Shown here: piece by piece, positions 1,248 to 20,727 of the stretch
How the letters are laid out: each line of letters begins with the position of its first letter
How positions within the stretch are numbered: the stretch's first letter is position 1
Made by a program: the position numbers and the translations under genes
Notes under the pieces: generated by a model
Database searches by the model: none
What the model saw: only the letters and a program-made list of their open reading frames with translations
Told to the model about the DNA's origin: nothing
IMG/VR virus record: IMGVR_UViG_2565956607_000008
Location: 1 to 20,816 of that record
DNA: 20,816 nucleotides
Direction: 5' to 3' (one strand)
Source: a virus
Taxonomy: Duplodnaviria; Heunggongvirae; Uroviricota; Caudoviricetes

Positions 1248-2003
1248 TTATTTTGGACGCTTTTTGGTTGCTTTTTTCTTAAATTTGGGGGCGTACTTAT
1301 CCAAAGCGTTCGTTAGCAATCTCCGAAATGTATCTGGGTGGGTATCGCTGTCTTCATCGTTCCCGAATATTATGTTGTTTTCTATTACTTGGGCACTAAC
1401 CCTATTGATACTAAGGTTTCCTCCACTATGGAAATCTTTGCTTGATTCAAATAAGGCAATCGCCATTCCGGCGATCATCTTTAAAGCCGTATCTTTTCCT
1501 CTCCAGTTTTGTTCTCTTTCTACTTTTTTTGACAGTGCTCCAATTTCTGGTTCGTTATCTGGAACATTCATATCCAGTTCTGGGAAGAAGTTCACAACCT
1601 CGGAGCGCTTGAAATAAAACGAATCGTAAGACCCATACCAATCATCCTCATCATCGTGATATAAAAAGTCTTCCCCTTTCCTAACGTTGAAAGTCCCTTC
1701 TTCCCCCGGTATCGGGCTCTCCCTGTATTCATGCCCCATAGCCAGAAGACCTAAAAACTCCACACACTGCTTTTCAAAGTCGTCATTAGTTGTAAAACCT
1801 GATACCCAATCGAACTGATAAAAGCCCAGCCCCCCTAAAGTATCTGGTTTAGCTTTGCTCAATCTGTAGTTACTTAAGATAGCGGCAGCGATCATTCTTT
1901 CATTTTCATTGTTTAGTCTTGCCAGTTCGCTGATCAGATTACCAAACCAGATTTTATCTTCTGACTCGTTATAAAACGCATCTAGTCCTGTCATCTTAGT
2001 CAC
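1248..2003 (-). CDS. Hypothetical cargo protein of unknown function (251 aa), translationally coupled to the integrase
   Basis: Start overlaps the integrase stop by 8 nt (1996..2003); acidic central region; no motif recognised. The antisense ORF 1156..1617 is judged spurious. Confidence 0.55.
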   Translation of the reverse strand: MTKMTGLDAFYNESEDKIWFGNLISELARLNNENERMIAAAILSNYRLSKAKPDTLGGLGFYQFDWVSGFTTNDDFEKQCVEFLGLLAMGHEYRESPIPGEEGTFNVRKGEDFLYHDDEDDWYGSYDSFYFKRSEVVNFFPELDMNVPDNEPEIGALSKKVEREQNWRGKDTALKMIAGMAIALFESSKDFHSGGNLSINRVSAQVIENNIIFGNDEDSDTHPDTFRRLLTNALDKYAPKFKKKATKKRPK

Positions 2004-3282
2004 GGCGTGTTCTCCTTCCGAACTCGTAAGGGCTTATATGTATTTCTCGATTGGCGTCCAGATAATCTGCCCACCATTGAAGCATTAGTTTGCGCTCTTC
2101 TAAGTAATCAGCCTTGTGCTTGTAGGCTCTTTTAACGTCTTTATATTCTTTGTGGCTCATCTGGCGCTCTACTGCGTCCTCCTGCCACAAACCGGACTCC
2201 ATCAGGGAACTACAGGCTGTGGCACGGAATCCATGTCCAGTTACGTCCTCTTGCGTGTTATAGCCCATTAAGCGTAATGCCTTGTTTACCGTGTTTTCAC
2301 TCATCACGCCTTTGGTGTTTCTTTCATTCGGAAACACAACATCGTAGCTTCCGCTTAGTTCTCTCAACTGCTTTACAATAGAAACAGCCTGACGGCTAAG
2401 AAGCACGATATGTTCGTCTTTTCCCGTTTTTGTGCCACGGGTGGAAAACCTCACACCATCGATAGGCTCTCTTTTTTTAGGGATAATCCACTCAGCCCGA
2501 TCAAGGTCAAACTCTTTCCAACGGGCAAACCTTAACTCGCTTGAACGAACAAATGTCAACATGGTTAGCTCAATGGCAAGGCGGGTAAGAGGATTACCTT
2601 TAAAGCTGCCCAATCGAGTGAAAAAGTCTGGTAAATCTCTGGGATGTAGTGCGGCATGATGCTTAGTTTCATATTGCATTAACCGGACATCGAGATCATT
2701 CGTGATGATTTCTGTCTTAATGCCGCTCAGACGGGCGCTATGTATGATGTCCTTAACTCGTTGTTTAAGTCGGTTGGCTGTATCGTGTTTCCCGGCGTCA
2801 TCTACCTTCTTAAACAAAGGTAAAATTGTCATCGCCTCCAGTTTGCGAATATCCGAAGTGCCAATGTGAGGGAAAATATACATTTCAAGGCTTCTAAGTA
2901 CGCGTTTTCGTTGGTCTTCGTTCCACATCTGGTGGCTTTCAACCCATTGACGTCCTATTGTCTCAAAAGTGAATGCGCCTTTTTCTTCTGCTTTTGCTGC
3001 TCTTTGCTCTGCTTTGGGATCTATCCCCTTGACTAACAACTTTTTGGCGTTGTCTCGTTTTTCTCTGGCGTCTTGTAAGCTAATGGTTGGATATACACCA
3101 AAAGCAAGTCTGTCTTCTTTCTTATCTGATGGGCGGCGATACTTCATTCGCCAATACTTCGACCCGGTCTGGGATACTTCAAGATAAAGACCACCACCAT
3201 CAGACAATTTATAAGTTTTGTCTCGTGGCTTAGCTGCTTTGCACTGACGGTCTGTTAATTTGTTGAGGGTATTTCTGGACAT
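1996..3282 (-). CDS. int: Tyrosine site-specific integrase, P4/CP4-57 type (428 aa)
   Basis: N-terminal DUF4102-like arm-binding pattern (LTDRQCKAAKP...DGGGLYLEV...YWRMKYR), C-terminal catalytic region with HGFRAT and later Y; lies 165 bp from the 3' end of the tRNA on the same strand. Confidence 0.9.
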   Translation of the reverse strand: MSRNTLNKLTDRQCKAAKPRDKTYKLSDGGGLYLEVSQTGSKYWRMKYRRPSDKKEDRLAFGVYPTISLQDAREKRDNAKKLLVKGIDPKAEQRAAKAEEKGAFTFETIGRQWVESHQMWNEDQRKRVLRSLEMYIFPHIGTSDIRKLEAMTILPLFKKVDDAGKHDTANRLKQRVKDIIHSARLSGIKTEIITNDLDVRLMQYETKHHAALHPRDLPDFFTRLGSFKGNPLTRLAIELTMLTFVRSSELRFARWKEFDLDRAEWIIPKKREPIDGVRFSTRGTKTGKDEHIVLLSRQAVSIVKQLRELSGSYDVVFPNERNTKGVMSENTVNKALRLMGYNTQEDVTGHGFRATACSSLMESGLWQEDAVERQMSHKEYKDVKRAYKHKADYLEERKLMLQWWADYLDANREIHISPYEFGRRTRRD

Positions 3283-3446
3283 GTTGGGGGCACATATACA
3301 ATCGAACCAGCAATGCCCCTAATTATGCCCCATAGATTTACTTGATTTCAATAGACGGAAATGGACGTCATGAGAATAAAATCTCTTTATTTTTATATGT
3401 TTACATGGGATTTATAGACAATGGTAGACGTTGGTGTACAGCGGGA

Positions 3447-3521
3447 TGGTGTCCCCTGCAGGAATCGAACCTGCAATTAGCCCTTAGGAGGGGCTCGTTA
3501 TATCCATTTAACTAAGGGGAC
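3447..3521 (-). tRNA. argW: tRNA-Arg (anticodon CCU)
   Basis: Reverse complement folds by hand into a 75-nt cloverleaf: 7-bp acceptor stem GTCCCCT/AGGGGAC, D-arm GTTA/TAAC, anticodon stem AGCCC/GGGCT with loop CTCCTAA (anticodon CCT), T-arm GCAGG-TTCGATT-CCTGC, discriminator A, CCA end. Confidence 0.9.
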
Positions 3522-3716
3522 ATAGAACTCACTGATTTTTAAGCGTTCAGCTTGTGTTGCATGTTATCCTATCATTCCCCGTACCATCAAGCATTTCATT
3601 CCTTTTATTTCCTTTCCGTTCGCATCAATTCGCTTAGAAAATCACTTCGTTCACTTGCCATTGCGTACACATTGAGTACAGAATGCAGAATTTCAGTGTG
3701 TACAGGATACAGAGCC

Positions 3717-4892
3717 GTGGCCCTTAGTGATACCAAACTCCGTAGCATCAATGCTAAGCCATACAGCGGCGCAGCTGAGGTCACAGATGGTGACGGGCTA
3801 AGTGTACGCATAACTCCCACAGGCACGATCACATTCCAGTTTCGTTATCGCTGGAACGGTAAGCCCGTTCGTCTCTCCATTGGCCGCTATCCCGCTATGT
3901 CTCTCAAGGAGGCGCGCGTAGTCGTCGGTGAGATGCGCGAATTGTACCTCAAGGGACTAAACCCGAAAAATTATTTTGCCAAAGAAGATGGCGAGTTGAC
4001 TCTCAAAGAGTGCCTGGATCAGTGGTGGGGTAAGTATGTTGAAACGCTGAAGCCGAACACTCAGACGCTGTACAAGTCCGTTGTGTACAACACGATGTAC
4101 ACAGAATTCCCGGACGCTCCGGTAGTTAACATTCCTATTTCTGCATGGGTGCGTTTCTTTGATAAGCAGGAAAAGAAGAACAGCAAAAAGGCCAGAGTGC
4201 TTCTTCTACAGCTACGTTCTGTAATGAACTGGTGTATCAGCCGCCAGTTGATCCCATCGTGCGAGGTCCTGAAGCTTAGCGTTAAGAGCATTGGGAAAAA
4301 ACCTGATGTGGGTAGCCGAGTTCTCACATATACCGAGTTGGCAAAAATCTGGCTGGCGCTGGAGAATAACAAGATCGTGACTTCCAACAAGGTGCTTCAT
4401 CAGCTGCTTTTGCTTTGGGGAGCCAGGCTATCAGAGCTGCGTCTGGCTACCGCCAGTGAATTTAACATGGATGATCTTATCTGGACGACGCCAGGAGAGC
4501 ATTCCAAGATGGGTAACGTTATCCGTCGCCCGGTGTTTGGCCAGGTGAAACCTTTTGTTGAAAGGCTCCTCAATGCTGGAAATGATGTTCTGTTTCCCGG
4601 CCAGGAACTGGACAAGCCAATAGATCGCTCATCAGCTAATCTCTATATGAAAAAGTTAAGGAATAAAATTGATATCCCAGAATGGCGAACACATGACTTC
4701 AGGCGCTCGCTGGTGACAAATTTATCAGGTGAAGGGGTTATGCCCCACGTCACCGAAAAGATGTTGGGGCATGAGTTGGGAGGAGTGATGGCGGTGTATA
4801 ACAAGCACGATTGGCTGGTAGAACAGAAAGAAGCATATGAGCTATATGCAGATAAAATTTTTTGGCATGTCAAGAAAATAAATGACCAATAA
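3717..4892 (+). CDS. int: Tyrosine integrase of the lambdoid prophage (about 391 aa; GTG start proposed)
   Basis: The ORF track gives 3552..4892, but the conserved integrase N-terminus (ALSDTKLRSINAKP...DGDGLSVRI...FQFRYRWNGK) begins at an in-frame GTG at 3717 preceded by AGGA; C-terminal catalytic region has HDFRRS. Start choice is uncertain. Confidence 0.8.
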   Translation: MALSDTKLRSINAKPYSGAAEVTDGDGLSVRITPTGTITFQFRYRWNGKPVRLSIGRYPAMSLKEARVVVGEMRELYLKGLNPKNYFAKEDGELTLKECLDQWWGKYVETLKPNTQTLYKSVVYNTMYTEFPDAPVVNIPISAWVRFFDKQEKKNSKKARVLLLQLRSVMNWCISRQLIPSCEVLKLSVKSIGKKPDVGSRVLTYTELAKIWLALENNKIVTSNKVLHQLLLLWGARLSELRLATASEFNMDDLIWTTPGEHSKMGNVIRRPVFGQVKPFVERLLNAGNDVLFPGQELDKPIDRSSANLYMKKLRNKIDIPEWRTHDFRRSLVTNLSGEGVMPHVTEKMLGHELGGVMAVYNKHDWLVEQKEAYELYADKIFWHVKKINDQ

Positions 4893-4928
4893 CTTTAGAC
4901 GTAAGTATTGAATTCTCTGGGGTATGAA

Positions 4929-6245
4929 ATGGAAATGATATTTAATGAAGATAAAGATATTGAAAATGCATTGCAGTGGCTATCTAAAACTCTACCAGAA
5001 CCTAATTCATTGTTTGATAGAATGTGTCTGGCACAAGAGAGTTATATTAAAGAATCGGCCTTGAAGGTTAATATTGGAAAGGAATCGAAAATAGAATGGC
5101 ATGGATGTGATGTTGTCGCAGGTTTTTTCTCTCAAGCTAAATCCTATCTTGATAATCGACGTTCTTATGATATTTCAGCTGCATCTAAAATACTTCCTTG
5201 GGTGAAACAACTTGGTGTTAATGTTGAATATCTTAACAATATTCCAGGTGCGGTAGAACGTGCTAAAAGGATGTTGGAAAGTTATACCGTTTATCCGGAT
5301 AATGCATTGTTTGAATTAATATTAGCAGGAAATTATGCGGCTAAAGGTTTCGATGTTGAGTTTATACCTGAGCAGAAAGGAATAGCTAAAACTCCTGAGT
5401 TTAAATGTAGCTTTGATGGTAAGGCTCTTTTTGTTGTTGAATGCAAAAGATTAAAAAAGGGGCAATACGCCCAACAAGAGGAGTCGGCTCATTCAACAAG
5501 AGCTTCTTTTATTGAATCTCGTGTACATCTGAAAAGAATGAGTGTCTGGATGGATGTCACATATAAATGTGAAGTAAATGAAACACCGGACGATTATCTT
5601 TTAAAACATTTATGTAATTATTATGGGAAAGAATATTCCTGGAGTGATGACTACGGTAGTGGTTTTATAAAGCCTGCAAATTTGCGTAGGGTGAATGATG
5701 ATATTAAATTGAACGGTTCTCTATCATTACACACCAAATTGGCAAGACTAATTAAAACATCTCCACTCGATGGTGAGTTTTACAATGTTTATGCGTTTGG
5801 TCGACCAGATGAACGAGATCCACGTTTTTTCTCTAAAATTAATTATGCAACATTACTGACATGGCGAAATGTAAGCGAGGTGTCATTAGAAAACAGGTCC
5901 AGGCATATCACTAAACATTTAAAAGAAATTGAAGATCAAATATCAAATAATGGACTTGGTGTAGGGCATTTAGTTATTGATGCTGACGTACAAAAAGATG
6001 TCGCTGATAAACGGAGGGAAAAAAATATTGAGGCTGCACTTTCTTTCCGGATAAAGTCCAAGCTTGTTCGGTTAAATATTCATTATCTTGTTCCTCGTGT
6101 TGATGAAGATAATTCGTGGCTGGTGGACGAAACTCTTGAATTTTTCAGCGGTGACGAGTTGATTAGTCATTTGTTTCCTGAGGTGAAATTATTTTCAGGG
6201 ATGGAACTTTTTGAAAATGATTTGCCTGCATGGCATCAGAAATGA
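4929..6245 (+). CDS. AT-rich cargo protein with a PD-(D/E)xK nuclease-like motif (about 438 aa)
   Basis: ATG at 4929 preceded by GGGG (ORF track uses TTG at 4908). Residues GFDVEF...x...FVVECKRL give a D...ExK pattern. Immediately downstream of the integrase and followed by an intrinsic terminator. Confidence 0.6.
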   Translation: MEMIFNEDKDIENALQWLSKTLPEPNSLFDRMCLAQESYIKESALKVNIGKESKIEWHGCDVVAGFFSQAKSYLDNRRSYDISAASKILPWVKQLGVNVEYLNNIPGAVERAKRMLESYTVYPDNALFELILAGNYAAKGFDVEFIPEQKGIAKTPEFKCSFDGKALFVVECKRLKKGQYAQQEESAHSTRASFIESRVHLKRMSVWMDVTYKCEVNETPDDYLLKHLCNYYGKEYSWSDDYGSGFIKPANLRRVNDDIKLNGSLSLHTKLARLIKTSPLDGEFYNVYAFGRPDERDPRFFSKINYATLLTWRNVSEVSLENRSRHITKHLKEIEDQISNNGLGVGHLVIDADVQKDVADKRREKNIEAALSFRIKSKLVRLNIHYLVPRVDEDNSWLVDETLEFFSGDELISHLFPEVKLFSGMELFENDLPAWHQK

Positions 6246-6252
6246 TTTTTAT

Positions 6253-6280
6253 GCCACCCAGGATAGGGTGGCTTTTTATT
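6253..6280 (+). terminator. Intrinsic terminator after the int-cargo unit
   Basis: Hairpin GCCACCC-AGGATA-GGGTGGC followed by TTTTTATT, directly after the stop at 6243..6245. Confidence 0.6.
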
Positions 6281-6469
6281 CTAACTATGGCTACCACTAA
6301 TCCCACCATTTTCAATCCATTGAAACACAGCTTTTCTGCTATATCGCGTAGGATAAGTGAGAACTGGATTTGGGAAATTATGATCTTTACGTAAACGCCA
6401 TACTGCTGTTTTTTTCTTGCCCAGTAATTCGAATACTTCTTTCTCTTCCATAAAATCTGTAGAAGTCAT
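6281..6469 (-). CDS. xis: Excisionase-like HTH protein (about 62 aa)
   Basis: Internal ATG at 6467..6469 with GAGGTG ribosome-binding site; translation MTSTDFMEEKEVFELLGKKKTAVWRLRKDHNFPNPV... is an AlpA/Xis-type HTH; located beside int. ORF-track start at 6544 would overlap the next gene. Confidence 0.6.
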   Translation of the reverse strand: MTSTDFMEEKEVFELLGKKKTAVWRLRKDHNFPNPVLTYPTRYSRKAVFQWIENGGISGSHS

Positions 6470-6476
6470 AAGCACC

Positions 6477-6998
6477 TCATTCAAAATTACCGTTAAAAAT
6501 ACACGTTCCACACCCACCGCGAGCCCCTTCAGTACAAACATCACAGCGATCTACTTTTTTACGAGGTCGTTCTTTGATGTGCAGCCTTGGTTCCCCGTCT
6601 TTTGGTTCCGGCCATGAGCGCTGCTTGTTCACCGCCAGCTTTTCGATCATCGCCTGGGTAATCTGCTCATCTGCAATACCGGAACGGTGCTGAGCGTCCC
6701 ACAACAGGAACTGCATATCCGCCCACTCTGAAAGGTCGTCTGGTGCCGCTGCGGCCTCCAGCGCTTCTTTGCTGAGGTGCTTCAGCGGGCCAACCGGGCC
6801 GACATTGCCGAAAGTTGCCTGTGACCACTCGGCGTGCTCGTTGCGTACCTGTTCTCTGTCCATTGCGTCCAGTGCTATGCGGGCCAGCGCTTCAGCTTCT
6901 TCTGCTGGCAGCATTACGTTGCTTCCAGCTCCATAGGTTCCACGCCATGATTTAATTTTTTCCAGGCGCTCTCTCGCCAGTTTGGTTATATCAGTCAT
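6477..6998 (-). CDS. MazG-like nucleotide pyrophosphohydrolase domain protein (DUF550-like) with C-terminal Cys cluster (about 173 aa)
   Basis: Start ATG 6996..6998 overlaps the upstream stop (ATGACTGA); EWADMQFLLWDA resembles the MazG-type E-x-x-D helix; C-terminal CDVC...CGTC. The longer ORF-track N-terminus overlaps a convincing neighbouring gene. Confidence 0.55.
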   Translation of the reverse strand: MTDITKLARERLEKIKSWRGTYGAGSNVMLPAEEAEALARIALDAMDREQVRNEHAEWSQATFGNVGPVGPLKHLSKEALEAAAAPDDLSEWADMQFLLWDAQHRSGIADEQITQAMIEKLAVNKQRSWPEPKDGEPRLHIKERPRKKVDRCDVCTEGARGGCGTCIFNGNFE

Positions 6999-7191
6999 CG
7001 GAGTTATCCTCGCAGCAGTAGTGAGCGCCGTCCGGGTCAGTACTTTTGAAACCGCAGATATCACACTCAATTTCGTCATGGGCTTCTTCATCGCATTCGT
7101 GACTTTCCGGATCGTCGGCTTTGTAATAACCGCCGCACAAATTGCAGCGGACTTCTGCCACATCGTCATAGTTAGTAGTCCCGGTTATCAT
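6991..7191 (-). CDS. Small highly acidic cysteine-rich protein (66 aa), zinc-ribbon-like
   Basis: Translation rich in D/E with CxxC...C...CxxC...CC; ATGA overlap with the upstream gene at 7188..7191. Confidence 0.55.
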   Translation of the reverse strand: MITGTTNYDDVAEVRCNLCGGYYKADDPESHECDEEAHDEIECDICGFKSTDPDGAHYCCEDNSDD

Positions 7192-9092: not shown

Positions 9093-9737
9093 TTAGCGGC
9101 GCATCTGGCGGCGGTGTTCGACAACGACACCGATGATGGAAATTTTTTCAACAGCAGAGTTTAAAGCAGCAAAATCAGGGTTTAACGGGACCAATTCGAA
9201 AACCTCTTCACCATTTTCGTTGACACCCCTTGCACGGTATTTTTTAAAAGTGGCGTATTCACTACCGTTTTTGGCTACAACATAGTCCCCAGGACCTGGA
9301 CACAAGTCAGGATCCACAATGATAGTGTCTCCCTCTTTGAACTCTGGCTCCATAGATTTTCCACGTACCTTAAGAGCGAAGGTACCAAACGAATGAGCGC
9401 CGTTTGTTAAAATGTAATCCACGGCACCCTCTAAATTACGAGCATCACTTTCAGATGTCCAAGTTCCTGCTTGAACCCAACTTATGATAGGGATCTGCAT
9501 AGCGCCTAAGTTGCCAGGCGCTACATTGGAGAGTTCCTCTTTACCGGTGAGGAGAAAGTCCTCAGAAACACCAAAATACCGAGCTAATTTTGTCAGCGAG
9601 ACTCCTCCGGGTATGTTTTGGTCTTTCTCCCAGTATCCAATGGTGACATCTGTCACTCCAACAACTTTACCCAGTTGCTTCTGGGTAAGCTTACGATCCT
9701 TTCTTAATGATTTTAAACGACTTCCAAATGTGCTCAC
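9093..9737 (-). CDS. cI: CI-like prophage repressor (HTH_XRE N-terminus, S24 LexA-like peptidase C-terminus; 214 aa)
   Basis: N-terminal MSTFGSRLKSLRKDRKLTQKQLGKVVGV... HTH; C-terminal ...KVRGKSMEPEFKEGDTIIVDPD... Ser-Lys dyad region typical of autocleaving repressors; GTG start; divergent from cro. Confidence 0.85.
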   Translation of the reverse strand: MSTFGSRLKSLRKDRKLTQKQLGKVVGVTDVTIGYWEKDQNIPGGVSLTKLARYFGVSEDFLLTGKEELSNVAPGNLGAMQIPIISWVQAGTWTSESDARNLEGAVDYILTNGAHSFGTFALKVRGKSMEPEFKEGDTIIVDPDLCPGPGDYVVAKNGSEYATFKKYRARGVNENGEEVFELVPLNPDFAALNSAVEKISIIGVVVEHRRQMRR

Positions 9738-11453: not shown

Positions 11454-12396
11454 ATTAACAGGATACGTCTGGGACGCTTGTGCATCTTCGGGGATGAAGC
11501 TATCCAGCGTGGCAATCATGGCGCGCCTGGCTGACTTCAGCAACGATGAGGGTGTTTGCTGGCCTTCTATTGCGACCATATCCCGTCAGATTGGCGCTGG
11601 TGAAAGTACTGTCAGAACGGCGATAGCTGCACTTGAGAAAGAGGGGTGGCTCACTCGTACGCAGCGCCGCAACGGCAACCGTAATGCATCGAACGTCTAC
11701 CAGCTCAACGTTTCCAAACTACAGAAAGCGGCATTTTCTCACCTGTCAGTTTCTGACACATCAAAATCTGACGCGTCAAAATCTGATGCGTCAAAAATTG
11801 ACCCCTCAAAATTTGATGCGTCGGAATCCATCAAAAAAACCGGTTTTGACCCGTCAGAATCTGGTGGGGATCCGTCAGTAAAATCAACTACTGATCCATC
11901 AGATATAAATCCTTCTTGTCCGGACGCTTCGCAACCGGACGAACAGGGCTCTGCTGATGAATTTCTGTCACGACATCCTGACGCGGTGGTGTACAGCGCT
12001 GCAAAGCGGCAGTGGGGCAGCCAGGACGATTTAACCTGCGCTGAGTTCATTTGGGGAAAAATTATCAGCATGTACGAACTGGCGGCTGAAAGTGATGGTG
12101 AGGTAGTTCGCCCTAAAGAACCAAACTGGACCGCATGGGCGAATGAGGTTCGCCTGATGGTGATGCAGGACGGGAGAACCCATAAACAAATTTGCTCACT
12201 TTTCAAGCGCGCCAACAAAGATTCGTTCTGGTGTAAAAACGTGCTCAGCCCGTCGAAGCTGCGGGAAAAATGGGATGAGCTGTCGTTAAAACTATCTGCT
12301 CCACTCAATAGCTCCCGCCAGGAATCGTCCATTTCGCGAGCCAGCTTCGACGGGGTTGATTACTCATTGCCAGAAAACTCGGGGTTCCGCACATGA
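11443..12396 (+). CDS. Replication initiator, lambda O-like architecture (317 aa)
   Basis: N-terminal winged-helix-like region, then pentapeptide repeats (SKSDA-like) encoded by 15-bp DNA iterons, then C-terminal domain; stop overlaps the dam start (ATGA). Confidence 0.7.
   Translation: MSTKLTGYVWDACASSGMKLSSVAIMARLADFSNDEGVCWPSIATISRQIGAGESTVRTAIAALEKEGWLTRTQRRNGNRNASNVYQLNVSKLQKAAFSHLSVSDTSKSDASKSDASKIDPSKFDASESIKKTGFDPSESGGDPSVKSTTDPSDINPSCPDASQPDEQGSADEFLSRHPDAVVYSAAKRQWGSQDDLTCAEFIWGKIISMYELAAESDGEVVRPKEPNWTAWANEVRLMVMQDGRTHKQICSLFKRANKDSFWCKNVLSPSKLREKWDELSLKLSAPLNSSRQESSISRASFDGVDYSLPENSGFRT
11751..11835. repeat. Iteron array inside the replication gene (putative prophage origin)
   Basis: Four to five tandem 15-bp units TCAAAATCTGACGCG / TCAAAATCTGATGCG / TCAAAAATTGACCCC / TCAAAATTTGATGCG containing TGACGCGTCA-type palindromes, followed by an A-rich stretch. 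Confidence 0.55.
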
Positions 12397-13202
12397 GCAA
12401 GCCATTTCTGAAATGGGCTGGTGGAAAGTATACCCAGCTGGCTGACCTGTTCGTGCATATCCCGGCAGGGAAACGCCTGATAGATCCATTCGTTGGTGGT
12501 GGGTCAGTATTCCTGAACAGCGAAAAGCACGCAGATTACCTGCTGGCGGACGTTAACCCGGACCTGATTAATCTGTATCAGATGTTAGCGGTCGTGCCGG
12601 ATGAAGTGGAATTGAAGGCCCGCTGGATGTTCGAGCACATGCGGTCACCAGATGGTTATGAGCTGATCCGTTCCGAGTTCAACGCTCAGACGCTGGATGC
12701 TACTGAACGCGCAGCTGCATTCCTGTATCTCAACCGGCATTGCTTCAATGGCCTGATGCGCTACAACCAGGCTAACAAATTCAATGTGGGCTGGGGAGGC
12801 TACAAGGCTCCGTATTACCCGATGGATGAGATGAAAGCCTTCGCGGCTATGGCGCATAACTGCGTATTCATGACTGCTGATTACCGTCGGACAATCAGCC
12901 TGGCCGGGAAAGGGGATGTGGTTTACTGCGATCCGCCTTACGAACCGATGCCGGGAACAGCCGGATTCACTGCCTACGCCGCTGGTGGGTTTAACTGGGA
13001 GAACCAGGTAGACCTGGCGAAGCAATGTGTATCTGCCTTTCACCGCGGGGCTCGGGTAGTAATTTCTAACTCATCCGCACCGAAGGTTCTCGATCTGTAC
13101 CGGGAGCATGGTTTTAACCTGCAATTCATCAAAGCGCGCCGTTCGATCTCCTGCAAAAGCAGTACGCGGGAAGTCGCCAAAGATGTCGTGGCTATCCTGT
13201 GA
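12393..13202 (+). CDS. dam: DNA adenine methyltransferase, Dam family (N6-adenine, orphan; 269 aa)
   Basis: Motif FLKWAGGK near the N-terminus and catalytic DPPY (VYCDPPYEP); no adjacent restriction endonuclease gene. Confidence 0.9.
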   Translation: MSKPFLKWAGGKYTQLADLFVHIPAGKRLIDPFVGGGSVFLNSEKHADYLLADVNPDLINLYQMLAVVPDEVELKARWMFEHMRSPDGYELIRSEFNAQTLDATERAAAFLYLNRHCFNGLMRYNQANKFNVGWGGYKAPYYPMDEMKAFAAMAHNCVFMTADYRRTISLAGKGDVVYCDPPYEPMPGTAGFTAYAAGGFNWENQVDLAKQCVSAFHRGARVVISNSSAPKVLDLYREHGFNLQFIKARRSISCKSSTREVAKDVVAIL

Positions 13203-14606: not shown

Positions 14607-15068
14607 TTAAAAGCTTTTAAGATATTTGCTTTTGATTTTTTCACTAACACTTTGTAATTCATGCAGTGTTGTGCCAACTTTATCAGCTTCATATTTTGTG
14701 TCATTGGTACATGCTTGGCGCAACTCTGCTATGAAACCTGTATCTTTTGTGCGGCTTGCATCAAGGAGTTGAATGCGTTCACATATAAACTCAACATGCC
14801 GTACGGACGATGTAAATATGAAATAAGATACTCTTTTGTCTTTTTCTTTATTCTCAAGTAGTTCCAGCATTTCACTATAAATGAAATCTAACTTGTAAAA
14901 CAACTCGTCTATCAATCTGTTTATTTCAAGTTTTTTGAGATTGTTTGCATTATTTTTCCGCGCCAAGTAGGCAGTAACTATCCATCCAATGATAGTTAAA
15001 CATATGCCCACAATAGCAATTATGGTAGCTGGTAGTGCCCATAAATTTGGAGTAACGGCTTGTTCCAT
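14607..15068 (-). CDS. Cassette gene C: single-pass membrane protein with helical cytoplasmic domain (153 aa)
   Basis: N-terminal hydrophobic helix (LWALPATIIAIVGICLTIIGWIVTAYLA) then charged helical region; 1-nt TAATG overlap with gene B; GAGGGATG ribosome-binding site; AT-rich. Confidence 0.7.
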   Translation of the reverse strand: MEQAVTPNLWALPATIIAIVGICLTIIGWIVTAYLARKNNANNLKKLEINRLIDELFYKLDFIYSEMLELLENKEKDKRVSYFIFTSSVRHVEFICERIQLLDASRTKDTGFIAELRQACTNDTKYEADKVGTTLHELQSVSEKIKSKYLKSF

Positions 15069-15385
15069 TATTTGGCATCCCTCAGAGCATCATTGATATA
15101 AGTAACAACCTCGGCAACTAATGCCGGATCCTTACTTTTAAGATTTTTCTTTAGGTTGTTAATCTTATCTTTGCTGATTCCCTTTCGCACCAGTCCACCA
15201 AAGGCCTCCTCCAAAAATGAGGATCCATACCCGAAAACCCCGTCAAAGTCAACGCAAATTTCATCATTTTCCAGTATTGCAGGAACTAAATAAAATTCGC
15301 GGAATTTTTCGCCACTATTCTCTCCAAGCGACTCGTAGCGAGGGCCAGGATATCTGGAGAATTCCTTGATATATAAAGTTTTCAT
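15068..15385 (-). CDS. Cassette gene B: STAS-like (DUF4325-like) small protein (105 aa)
   Basis: VDFDGVFGYGSSFLEEAFGGL parallels the anti-sigma-factor-antagonist motif around the phosphorylatable serine; strong AAGGAGAAG ribosome-binding site; ATGA overlap with gene A. Confidence 0.7.
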   Translation of the reverse strand: MKTLYIKEFSRYPGPRYESLGENSGEKFREFYLVPAILENDEICVDFDGVFGYGSSFLEEAFGGLVRKGISKDKINNLKKNLKSKDPALVAEVVTYINDALRDAK

Positions 15386-16482
15386 GCCGCTTCTCCTTCA
15401 GTTGGTAGTGGCACACTCCACTCAACAATTGTACCATTGATGGATTTATGAGCATCCCACATCAATTCGGGCCTTGCTTTCTTCCTTTTAGTATATCTGT
15501 AGTTCCCCTTGTTTGATATGATTCTGAGTTGGGCATGTGTAAAATTATCTATAATTGATTGTAAATCCGTGCCGCCTTTCCCTCTGTAACCAAGTTTTGT
15601 TCTTGTGCGTTTAACCTGTAATGATGCTTTTATATGCTCTGAATCTAATTCAATAGGCTTGCCTATAATTTCAATAAGTTTTGATAAAACTCTTTCTCCT
15701 TGAGTTAATTTCAAAGTTTTGGGAATTCCAACTCCTAAATCGCATATGGATAAAATCAATTTATTATTCATTATTGCTGCAAAACACCACCATTTATTTT
15801 TAATGTTGTTCTTTTGCTTGTCGTATAGATCATCTCTATATGCGTGCTCTACCGAGTTGGACATCGCCTCAATTAGAGGTCTGTATAAATTAGTGTAATC
15901 CGTTCCCATTTTCTCAGTTACTGCTTCTAATAGTTTCCCAGCAATTGTAGAATCAACCAGTTCACCTCTAATAACCTCCCAGCACTTAACAGATGGGTTC
16001 TCTTTCATCTCTCGACCTTTTACCCCAAATGCAGAATATATACCAATACGGTTAAGTACGCTATCAACTACATGATGTTCGCCTTTCTGTGTAGTTTTGA
16101 ATGGAGGGCGAGTTACAGTGTATCTTATATCTGGATAGTTACTTTTTAAACTCTCCAGTTTTGCTAGTAAATATAATCCTGCAGCGGCCGATATGTAAAT
16201 CGTATTTCTGAAGCAAACATATATTTTTTGAGTTTTAAACTGCTCTTGCTTGGCTTTTTTTTCAATATTTTCAATAAAACTTATTACGTTGTCATGGTAA
16301 TTAGAGTTATAGATATCAAGAATAGTAGGTGCAACTATTTTTTCAGAATTTGATTTTCGTATGTTACCATTACGTTTGTATCTTTTGTGTTCGGTTGACT
16401 TTTTGCTTGCGTTTGCACGGAGAAACCTTTTTCTCCTTATTCTTTTTAACACTGAAGTATAGAGCTGTTCTATTTTTTTCAT
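15382..16482 (-). CDS. Cassette gene A: protein with basic N-terminal region and C-terminal GHKL/HATPase-like ATP-binding domain (366 aa)
   Basis: AAGGAG ribosome-binding site 8 nt upstream; N-box-like EAMSNSVEHAY (E205..N209..H213), G1-like CDLGVGI (D248xGxG), G2-like GYRGKGGTDL (about 299..308); AT-rich. Confidence 0.7.
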   Translation of the reverse strand: MKKIEQLYTSVLKRIRRKRFLRANASKKSTEHKRYKRNGNIRKSNSEKIVAPTILDIYNSNYHDNVISFIENIEKKAKQEQFKTQKIYVCFRNTIYISAAAGLYLLAKLESLKSNYPDIRYTVTRPPFKTTQKGEHHVVDSVLNRIGIYSAFGVKGREMKENPSVKCWEVIRGELVDSTIAGKLLEAVTEKMGTDYTNLYRPLIEAMSNSVEHAYRDDLYDKQKNNIKNKWWCFAAIMNNKLILSICDLGVGIPKTLKLTQGERVLSKLIEIIGKPIELDSEHIKASLQVKRTRTKLGYRGKGGTDLQSIIDNFTHAQLRIISNKGNYRYTKRKKARPELMWDAHKSINGTIVEWSVPLPTEGEAA

Positions 16483-16707: not shown

Positions 16708-16737
16708 TTGACTAACACAAAGTTTACAAATTAGATT
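16708..16737 (+). promoter_or_regulatory. Putative late promoter (pR'-like)
   Basis: TTGACT (16708..16713), 17-18 bp spacer, TTAGAT/TAGATT (16731..16737); upstream of a non-coding leader ending in terminators before the lysis genes. Sequence-only prediction. Confidence 0.3.
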
Positions 16738-17010
16738 ATCGACATGGTGAATCCCCCTATGCGGTGGGGCGACCAGTCACTTACAGTGATCTGTAAATGC
16801 AGCGCGGGCCATGTCGACTGGGACATGCTCACCGGGAGGCACCCGGCACCATACAATGCTACTAAGCTATTTGGTAGTGGGGTTGCCGTTTCGGCTTCTC
16901 CAGCTATGTTTAAAAGGTAGTAACGGAAAACGAGCGCTCTCCTGGTAAATCGGTAGCTCGGACTATTAGGTGCGCCTCGTTCCGTTGCAGAATCAGTATT
17001 GCCTACCTTC

Positions 17011-19821: not shown

Positions 19822-20727
19822 CTATATTTCCAGACACCTGTCATCACTTAACCCATTACTGGCCCGCTGCCGTAGATATTCCCGTGGCGAGCGATAACCC
19901 AGTGCACTATGCGGATGCCATTCGTTATAATGCTCGAACGCCTCTGCAAGGTTCTTTGCTGCCGTTAACCCGTCTGGTTTGGGCATGATACTGATGTAAT
20001 CACGCTTTATCGTTTTCACGAAGCTCTCTGCTATGCCGTTACTCTCCGGACTCCGCACCGCCGTGTTCTTCGGTTCAAGTCCCAACATCCGGGCGAACTG
20101 GCGTGTTTCATTAGCCCGGTAGCATGAACCATTATCCGTCAGCCACTCCACTGGAGATGTCGGAAGCTCGCTGCCGAAGCGGCGTTCCACCGCTCCCAGC
20201 ATGACGTCCTGTACTGTTTCACTGTTGAAGCCGCCCGTAGTGACCGCCCAGTGCAGTGCCTCACGGTCACAGCAGTCCAGCGCGAACGTGACTCGCAGTC
20301 TCTCTCCGTTATCACAGCAGAACTCGAACCCGTCAGAGCACCATCGCTGATTGCTTTCTTTCACGGCCACTCTGCCTGTATGTGCCCGTTTCGATGGCGG
20401 TACAGCAGGTTTTCGCTCAAGCAACAGCGCATTCTGGCGCATGATCCGGTAAACACGTTTGGCATTGATCGCAGGCATACCATCAAGTTCTGCCTGTCTG
20501 CGAAGCAGCGCCCATACCCGACGATAACCATACGTGGGCAGCTCTCCGATAACATGGTGTATACGGAGAAGCACATCCGTATCATCAGTGTGACGACTGC
20601 GGCGGCCATCCATCCAGTCATCGGTTCGTCTGAGAATGACGTGCAACTGCGCACGCGACACCCGGAGACAACGGCTGACTAAGCTTACTCCCCATCCCCG
20701 GGCAATAAGGGCGCGTGCGCTATCCAC
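19822..20727 (-). CDS. insD: IS2 transposase OrfB (InsD; 301 aa)
   Basis: Translation [43 protein letters not shown]... with DDE-type integrase core matches IS2 InsD as I recall it. Confidence 0.95.

Follow-up and report, generated by a model that had tools for sequence, protein, structure and literature searches.

Organisation of the locus

The window, by which we mean the whole stretch of viral DNA that was analysed (20.8 kb), is the immunity and early region of a Klebsiella-type lambdoid prophage. Its left arm runs on the minus strand and comprises a ParB-like gene, three small genes, the EaA gene described here and xis, with stops and starts that overlap. The gene cI is located at 9093-9737 on the minus strand, and the EaA gene lies downstream of it between the ParB-like gene and xis. 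The right arm carries cro, cII, an O-like gene, a gene for a Dam-type (D12 N6-adenine) methyltransferase, Q and the lysis genes. The following features were assigned at the EaA gene and next to it:

6477..6998, minus strand: EaA-family PF04447 (DUF550/MazZ-type) coding sequence, 173 amino acids, stop codon TGA at 6479-6477 included
6864..6998, minus strand: N-terminal EaA leader, residues 1-45, predicted helix-loop-helix (homologue alignments, AF2)
6564..6845, minus strand: PF04447 catalytic core, all-alpha MazG-HisE fold, residues 52-145 (Pfam, AF2, Foldseek)
6756..6767, minus strand: E78-x2-E81, first metal-binding motif, corresponding to MazZ E35/E38 (7ODY alignment, conservation)
6693..6728, minus strand: EWADMQFLLWDA helix with E91-x2-D94 (MazZ E50/D53) and D101 (MazZ D60) (7ODY alignment)
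6480..6563, minus strand: Cys4 cassette, residues 146-173 (RKKVDR-CDVC-TEGARGG-CGTC-IFNGNFE), Cys core at 6501-6545
7007..7011, minus strand: Shine-Dalgarno sequence GAGGA, 8 nt 5' of the ATG at 6998, read from the sequence
6999..7169, minus strand: spurious 57-codon N-terminal extension of the ORF-track form, noncoding in its frame as judged by the substitution pattern
6991..7191, minus strand: gene for an acidic, Cys-rich protein of 66 aa, in translational coupling with the EaA gene (phrog_25957, E=2.5e-17)
6281..6469, minus strand: excisionase-like gene, 62 aa, HTH_17/AlpA-like, directly downstream of the EaA gene

The ATG of the xis-like gene follows 8 nt past the EaA stop codon, and its Shine-Dalgarno sequence GAGGTG overlaps this stop. 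Rfam and tRNA scans gave no match within 6477-6998, and neither the 173-aa protein nor its neighbours matched an entry of NCBIfam or PADLOC.

Start codon and product of the EaA gene

The open reading frame as listed by the ORF track encodes 230 amino acids from 7169 and contains an internal ATG at 6998, from which a protein of 173 amino acids is read. This product begins with MTDITKLARERLEK and ends with CDVCTEGARGGCGTCIFNGNFE; its central helix is EWADMQFLLWDA (residues 91-102, nt 6693-6728) and its C-terminal part is RKKVDRCDVCTEGARGGCGTCIFNGNFE. The ATG at 6998 overlaps the stop codon of the upstream 66-aa gene (ATGACTGA), which has its own Shine-Dalgarno sequence (GAGGGGG) and is an annotated coding sequence in the Klebsiella phages ST13-OXA48phi12.2 and ST16-OXA48phi5.1. 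In the latter phage the 66-aa gene stands before an unrelated non-DUF550 gene with the same 8-nt overlap.

A preliminary description of this DNA had suspected that the ORF-track start was too long and that the N-terminal 57 codons overlapped a well-supported upstream gene. Both suspicions were borne out, and the overlap covers exactly 6999-7169. Near-identical NCBI proteins (98-99% identity, e.g. P0003) have 173 amino acids and are named 'DUF550 domain-containing protein'. Moreover, the comparison with ST16-OXA48phi5.1 (L005) placed 16 of the 20 substitutions at third positions of the 66-aa frame, and among the 18 changed codons nine were synonymous in this frame and none in the frame of the extension. 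Together with the GAGGA Shine-Dalgarno sequence, these results established the start and indicate that the translated gene is the short form from 6998. That the 230-aa form is the translated product is hardly credible. Its frame is indeed open from 7169 and has been used by two automatic gene calls (P0001, P0002), but the extension overlaps a conserved and separately annotated gene, which also precedes an unrelated gene, and the substitutions follow the frame of that gene. Besides, a strong Shine-Dalgarno sequence was found before 6998 and none before 7169, the PF04447 score was not raised by the extension, and the N-terminus MT..(T/A)RE(R/Q)L, with which many differently built relatives begin, coincides with the short start.

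Family, fold and active site

Residues 52-145 matched positions 2-95 of the 97 positions of PF04447 (E=1.2e-41, 141.3 bits against a cut-off of 23). This family was formerly called DUF550 and is now the dATP/dGTP pyrophosphohydrolase family, a name which comes from the assay of the enzyme of phage SH-Ab 15497 (PMC12884076, PMC8342488). By sequence, the only relative in the PDB was 7ODY, the MazZ protein of cyanophage S-2L. A phmmer search with the single sequence found it at E=0.017, which improved to E=1.6e-7 with a family profile of 46 sequences; the identity to MazZ is only about 29%. Residues 15-101 of MazZ (7ODY chain A, 87 residues) score 44 bits in PF04447, above the threshold, and the family therefore includes a solved and assayed enzyme.

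Similar results were obtained at the level of structure. With an alignment of 30 close homologues AlphaFold reached a mean pLDDT of 43 only; after the alignment had been rebuilt with 25 distant relatives, reached via the phiM5 homologue, the core (residues 45-140) was predicted at a pLDDT of 89-95. In the leader, two AF2 helices (residues 3-22 and 32-44) were predicted at a pLDDT of 55-67. In a Foldseek search against the PDB the first four matches were chains of 7ODY (probability 1.0, target-normalised TM 0.72-0.79, rmsd 2.7-3.0 A), followed by RS21-C6/DCTPP1, YpjD, Bacillus MazG, HisE and Sulfolobus MazG, and the matches in BFVD bear the name 'dATP/dGTP diphosphohydrolase MazZ domain-containing protein'. 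MazG-fold matches are thus present. The profiles of canonical MazG (PF03819) and of MazG-like proteins (PF12643), on the other hand, did not match the 173-aa protein at E<=1, and in the predicted model the tie to canonical MazG exists at the level of the fold only. Accordingly, the assignment to a MazG-like, DUF550-type family given in the preliminary description holds for PF04447/MazZ, with P22 EaA as a member, and fails for canonical MazG; the PF04447 match, the profile match to 7ODY, its top rank in Foldseek and the conserved metal ligands all agree in this.

By sequence, the 173-aa protein is a further member of a known and catalogued phage family, of which near-identical proteins are already annotated at NCBI. 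Besides the Pfam match, phrog_3323 covers residues 1-97. The eaa gene of P22 shares 76.7% identity over the core (tblastn, residues 47-149). At E<=0.001 the PF04447/EaA family numbers 7,012 homologues, and 4,165 clusters were counted at 50% identity. Among 150 listed representatives of such clusters the core of about 100 residues is 70-85% identical, with protein lengths of 158-477 aa. The flanks are mosaic: the leader is common to many EaA variants, variable inserts come next in the relatives and stand between LYRHAQP-type linkers, and alternative modules form the C-terminus. Some of the variable inserts hold zinc-ribbon-like motifs. The family is also found in virulent Webervirus phages and in phiM5, where it adjoins genes of DNA metabolism. 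Our search of the literature returned no functional study and no biochemical data on any lambdoid EaA.

This combination of a nearly constant core with widely varying flanks and lengths could be read as the trace of an arms race, with hypervariable modules arranged round an invariant core. The protein would then be a house-cleaning or counter-defence enzyme that acts on non-canonical or defence-made nucleotides such as oxidised or deaminated dNTPs or chain terminators. The occurrence in virulent phages and beside DNA-metabolism genes would suit such a role, as would the next-best structural neighbours DCTPP1/RS21-C6, YpjD and MazG, which are house-cleaning enzymes. We nevertheless regard this explanation, which is drawn by analogy, as unlikely, given that the pocket residues described below fit a binder of canonical guanine and that ordinary shuffling of lambdoid modules can account for the mosaic structure.

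For MazZ it has been reported that E35, E38, E50 and D53 are metal ligands, that R83 acts on the transition state and that D60 contacts N2 of guanine, with W15, K76, N80, W85, R94 and H95 as further pocket residues (PMC8342488). In the HMMER alignment the four metal ligands correspond to E78, E81, E91 and D94, R83 to R127, D60 to D101, and the pocket residues to W58, K120, N124, W129, R138 and H140. Since E91-x2-D94 and D101 align to E50/D53 and D60 of MazZ, the EWADMQFLLWDA helix carries the E-x2-D metal motif together with the base-contact aspartate, which confirms the earlier suggestion of a MazG-type metal-binding motif in this helix. E78, E81, E91 and D94 are invariant in 46 sequences, down to 29% identity. 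The aligned active-site residues are mostly invariant at 29-42% identity, and those of the partner-subunit pocket and the transition state (K120, N124, R127, W129, R138, H140) are invariant or at least 90% conserved, the latter applying to K120, N124 and H140. The sole metal ligand of MazZ that is not kept is E34, which is replaced by K77; this residue is likewise not conserved among MazZ-1 homologues. The conservation of the catalytic residues is thereby established, and it points to a pyrophosphohydrolase that would cleave purine (d)NTPs.

The retention of the guanine-contact residue as D101 and the position in the early operon would also be compatible with an enzyme of the same fold whose physiological substrate is the alarmone (p)ppGpp. 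Such an enzyme would dampen the stringent response or abortive infection mediated by a toxin. An action of this kind has been described for the phage MazG-like pyrophosphatase Atd1, which cleaves ppGpp and gives protection from TIR-STING toxicity (bioRxiv 10.1101/2022.06.09.495361). We judge this to be improbable. Atd1 is described as a protein with a MazG catalytic domain, whereas the 173-aa protein lacks a canonical MazG match at E<=1, and both assayed PF04447-type enzymes use (d)GTP or dATP/dGTP. Moreover, the pocket of MazZ is almost wholly buried (PMC8342488), which would be expected to disfavour a 3'-diphosphorylated substrate, and a search for a PADLOC or anti-defence annotation found none.

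The role characterised for MazZ/DUF550 enzymes is the supply of dGMP and the removal of dATP for 2-aminoadenine DNA. Neither PurZ nor DatZ (or dpoZ) was found among the scanned ORFs of the window. Since the window also encodes a Dam-type methyltransferase, the enzyme would not feed the 2-aminoadenine pathway, and a role in a Z-genome was rejected on the evidence of these 20.8 kb of the prophage. The DUF550 enzymes of Z-phages form a clade of their own (PMC12884076); therefore, the substrate preference of the EaA protein may differ from theirs.

The C-terminal Cys4 cassette

The four cysteines of the tail, C152, C155, C163 and C166, are the only cysteines of the protein and form the pattern C-x2-C-x7-C-x2-C, with CDVC at 152-155 and CGTC at 163-166. 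This C-terminal cluster, already noticed in the preliminary description, proved to be real and under constraint. In 15 cassettes which are otherwise 26-45% identical, the four cysteines as well as G158, R160 and G162 are invariant. Among 119 close relatives about 20 distinct amino-acid variants were found, none of them at the invariant positions (estimated chance about 0.001), and all tail substitutions were synonymous in the comparisons with L002 (3 of 3), a gene of Klebsiella phage 1 LV-2017, and with L001 (3 of 3). The tail matched no Pfam family at E<=5, and the 15 cassettes gave only scattered sub-threshold matches; a search of the tail and the cassette proteins against the PDB by sequence and profile returned no meaningful match. 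The only match of the tail was phrog_14816 (residues 147-169). AF2 predicted the tail at a pLDDT below 50. With this value and no zinc-finger match in Pfam or the PDB, zinc binding is deduced from the Cys pattern alone, and most likely the tail is a small zinc-binding knuckle. A kinship of the cassette with lambda Ea8.5 or with a solved zinc finger was considered and rejected, as it had no match in the PDB, which should include the Ea8.5 homologue 2M7A, and belonged to no Pfam family.

The same tail was found on proteins of entirely different build. In Klebsiella phage 1 LV-2017 it ends a 131-aa protein without a DUF550 domain (L002). The DNA homology of the window to this gene starts at 6572, just past the core, and peaks (93-100%) over the tail and the 5' end of xis. 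A divergent copy, CRTCNDGLRGGCSSC, forms the C-terminus of a basic coiled-coil protein of 92 aa in mEp390, where the gene of this protein is separate from the EaA gene, and the cassette was present in 95 of the 120 listed relatives of the 92-aa protein. Of the close EaA relatives, 119 of 120 carry it. Among DUF550 proteins in general it is rare, occurring in only 4 of 148 representatives besides the window's own two clusters, and in none of 25 distant DUF550 proteins. A scan of IMG/VR with a 45-nt degenerate pattern gave at least 119 stretches; in 114 of the 119 listed, the motif stood 4-7 codons before an in-frame stop, and among the matches listed the cassette sat on at least six unrelated protein bodies. 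As judged from these sequences, the cassette is a separate mobile C-terminal module.

The position of the cassette follows a strict rule. In all 105 listed contigs with enough downstream sequence, a same-strand ORF of 49-120 aa starts between -32 and +35 nt from the stop. Clustering divided these ORFs into about ten groups; by Pfam, they are excisionase-like in 89 of the 105 listed contigs:

Cluster of 38 (38 contigs): Exc (lambda Xis-like), sub-threshold
Clusters of 25, 3 and 1 (29 contigs): HTH_17, sub-threshold for the 25 and the 3, above threshold for the single contig
Cluster of 19 (19 contigs): DUF4224
Cluster of 2 (2 contigs): DUF1233 'putative excisionase'
Single contig (1 contig): PrtN
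Clusters of 13, 2 and 1 (16 contigs): no Pfam assignment

Among the matches listed, the cassette thus adjoins at least five different excisionase-type families, and in at least 35 of 56 loci an integrase-like match was found no more than 3.5 kb downstream. The cassette therefore marks, in the contigs listed, the gene directly before a small ORF of the same strand, which is excisionase-like by Pfam in 89 of the 105, and does so whichever xis family is present. The mobility and the position of the cassette are established by these counts. We also considered whether the conservation of the tail could merely be due to DNA hitch-hiking with xis. The xis genes beside the cassette come from several families that are not related to one another, so that hitch-hiking with one allele is insufficient, and we rejected it as the sole explanation.

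The tail may instead be a functionless passenger, that is, the 3' leftover of an older xis-adjacent gene which was fused to the EaA core by recombination and persists only because recombination has a conserved boundary in the DNA that joins it to xis. The homology to L002 sets in exactly where the core ends and peaks over the tail and the start of xis, a pattern that such an event would leave behind. The separate EaA and cassette genes of mEp390 and the small share of DUF550 representatives that have the tail agree with it as well. We consider this scenario rather unlikely, though, because the protein sequence of the tail is conserved even between loci that differ in their DNA and in both neighbouring genes, with seven invariant positions at 26-45% identity. 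The clustering of variants outside these positions and the exclusively synonymous substitutions speak against a passenger too, and a single xis allele offers no explanation for at least five adjoining excisionase-type families. The best reading of the sequence data is that a putative zinc knuckle is kept by selection at the xis-proximal position.

A broader proposal can be put forward only tentatively and at low confidence. The cassette C-x2-C-x-[DE]-G-x-R-x-G-C-x2-C, placed 4-7 residues from the stop, might be an undescribed mobile and probably zinc-binding mini-domain that is selected on whichever gene directly precedes the excisionase gene in enterobacterial lambdoid prophages.

Discussion

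In all likelihood the gene analysed in our study encodes an EaA/PF04447 purine (d)NTP pyrophosphohydrolase of the lambdoid early operon which carries a mobile Cys4 tail. The protein consists of three parts, namely a short helical leader, a pyrophosphohydrolase core of the MazG-HisE fold and the 28-residue Cys4 cassette. Its translation starts at the ATG at 6998, and its gene is one cistron of a tightly overlapping leftward early operon read from a cI-proximal promoter. From S-2L MazZ and the DUF550 enzyme of SH-Ab 15497 we infer a homotetramer with active sites at the dimer interfaces. By the same analogy, E78, E81, E91 and D94 would hold two or three Mg2+ or Mn2+ ions, and the enzyme would convert a purine (d)NTP (dGTP, possibly dATP or GTP) to the monophosphate and pyrophosphate. 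Most likely the purine nucleotide pool would thereby be reshaped or sanitised soon after the phage has been induced or has infected a cell. The Cys4 tail was gained by recombination where the core ends, and it forms a mobile module of its own that is bound to the place next to xis.

The closest characterised counterpart is S-2L MazZ (7ODY), which belongs to PF04447, was the best match by profile and by structure, and shares the metal ligands, R83, D60 and the pocket. MazZ is (d)GTP-specific, has a chain of 111 residues in 7ODY and is encoded in a datZ-mazZ-purZ cluster responsible for the synthesis of 2-aminoadenine DNA. The 173-aa protein, in contrast, adds a leader and the Cys4 tail and lies in a lambdoid early-left operon with neither purZ nor datZ in the window. 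The enzyme of Acinetobacter phage SH-Ab 15497 also has a DUF550 domain and was assayed as a dATP/dGTP pyrophosphohydrolase, a result of Zhou et al. 2021 that is cited in PMC12884076 and PMC8342488. It differs in being fused to DUF5664 and linked to PurZ. Canonical MazG and Atd1 share the all-alpha NTP-pyrophosphatase superfamily and the E-x2-E ... E-x2-D chemistry with the 173-aa protein but represent another family, whose profiles PF03819 and PF12643 remained unmatched at E<=1, and Atd1 was assayed on (p)ppGpp.

Among phage and prophage proteins, EaA of Salmonella phage P22 and the proteins named 'Eaa/Eaa1' in enterobacterial prophages resemble the 173-aa protein in the core (76.7% identity), in their early-left, xis-proximal place and in their mosaic build. 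The P22 type is composed of the leader, variable inserts with LYRHAQP-type linkers, the core and a variable tail. The EaA protein of mEp390 (309 aa, annotated as similar to P22 EaA) is longer and has another C-terminal module without the Cys4 cassette. A likeness also exists to the exo-xis proteins of lambda, which are encoded by small non-essential early-left genes between the recombination genes and xis. Several of these proteins bind zinc via Cys motifs and influence the lysis-lysogeny decision; Ea8.5 is a homeodomain/zinc-finger hybrid reported to be exclusive to lambda, and Orf73 is a TraR-like C4 zinc protein (PMC8614690).

The gene itself is routine: the ORF-track call turned out to be too long, and the protein could be assigned to a family for which work on Z-genome phages has revealed the chemistry. 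Enterobacterial phages with ordinary DNA, temperate as well as virulent, very commonly carry PF04447/EaA enzymes. The novelty is modest and lies in the role that EaA/MazZ-type enzymes may have in phages with normal DNA, together with the rule for where the Cys4 cassette is placed. The cassette is a cleanly defined and unannotated module with a strict place directly upstream of a small, mostly excisionase-like gene. If our tentative proposal on its selection is true, it would connect a variety of early proteins, among them the pyrophosphohydrolase described here, with one shared partner or process where the early-left operon has its excision/integration end. Such a process may be, for example, the regulation of excision or of the choice between lysis and lysogeny, for which other exo-xis genes have been reported to matter.

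Integration locus and the gene between integrase and xis

1996-3282 (-), tyrosine integrase
3447-3521 (-), tRNA-Arg(CCT), within 1996-4892 with one tyrosine integrase on each side
3552-4892 (+), tyrosine integrase
4908-6245 (+), 445-aa ORF between integrase and the excisionase-like gene xis, with a weak match to phrog_37220
6253-6272, strong terminator (hairpin and T-run) 3' of the 445-aa ORF

The two tyrosine integrases around the tRNA gene are divergently oriented, and this pair suggests a single tRNA locus at which two integrated elements adjoin. Integrase and xis of the prophage in the window are convergent, which is likewise the case in Escherichia phage vB_EcoS-733R5. The slot of the 445-aa ORF is occupied by other genes in vB_EcoS-733R5 as well as in Klebsiella phage 1 LV-2017. 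Searches of Pfam, NCBIfam and PADLOC with this ORF returned no match, and we consider it a candidate for a moron or for defence cargo.

Right-hand part of the window

12393-13202 (+), D12-class N6-adenine DNA methyltransferase (Dam-like) of the early-right operon
14607-16482 (-), three-gene block with the antiterminator Q gene on one side and the lysis genes on the other
16715-16907 (+), gammaproteobacterial sRNA STnc100 (Rfam, full length, 76 bits vs a gathering score of 47)
19822-20727 (-), IS3-family transposase (rve, rve_3, HTH_21) at the right end of the window

The D12-class methyltransferase gene suggests that the phage DNA carries ordinary adenine. The three-gene block encodes proteins of 366, 105 and 153 aa. 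The 105-aa protein contains a DUF4325 STAS-like domain, and the other two were without a match. The block resembles a moron insertion and may be a defence module. The IS3-family transposase lies inside the late region of the prophage or adjoins it.

Cys-rich proteins and the Cys4 cassette

6991-7191 (-), very acidic, Cys-rich 66-aa protein upstream of EaA, matching phrog_25957 (function unknown)

The cysteines of the 66-aa protein are arranged as C16-x2-C19, C33, C43-x2-C46 and C59-C60, and it is probably a small early protein that binds zinc. Klebsiella phages keep its gene with the same ATGA-type overlap in front of different downstream genes.

Several otherwise unrelated small prophage proteins end in the C-terminal Cys4 cassette of EaA (IMG/VR loci L014-L132, for example L018, 8189-8233; L045, 8046-8090; L078, 989-1033; and L116). 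Two of these bodies are families, one of 90 aa ('...KMYETDKDDRDHQLCRRCNDGIRGGCSSCAYNVR') and one of 93 aa, and two are proteins of 132 aa and 236 aa. Among the IMG/VR matches listed, a small ORF on the same strand follows each cassette-ending protein within ~35 nt; this ORF is excisionase-like in 89 of the 105 contigs with enough downstream sequence.

Other Cys-rich modules occur in EaA/DUF550 homologues. P0037 and P0055 contain a zinc-ribbon-like insert between the N-terminal leader and the PF04447 core (CWSC...CPKC, or C...CIKC), and P0410 has a DnaJ-like CxxCxGxG pair C-terminal to the core. Therefore, Cys-rich modules are recurrent in the EaA/DUF550 family, where they possibly bind zinc.
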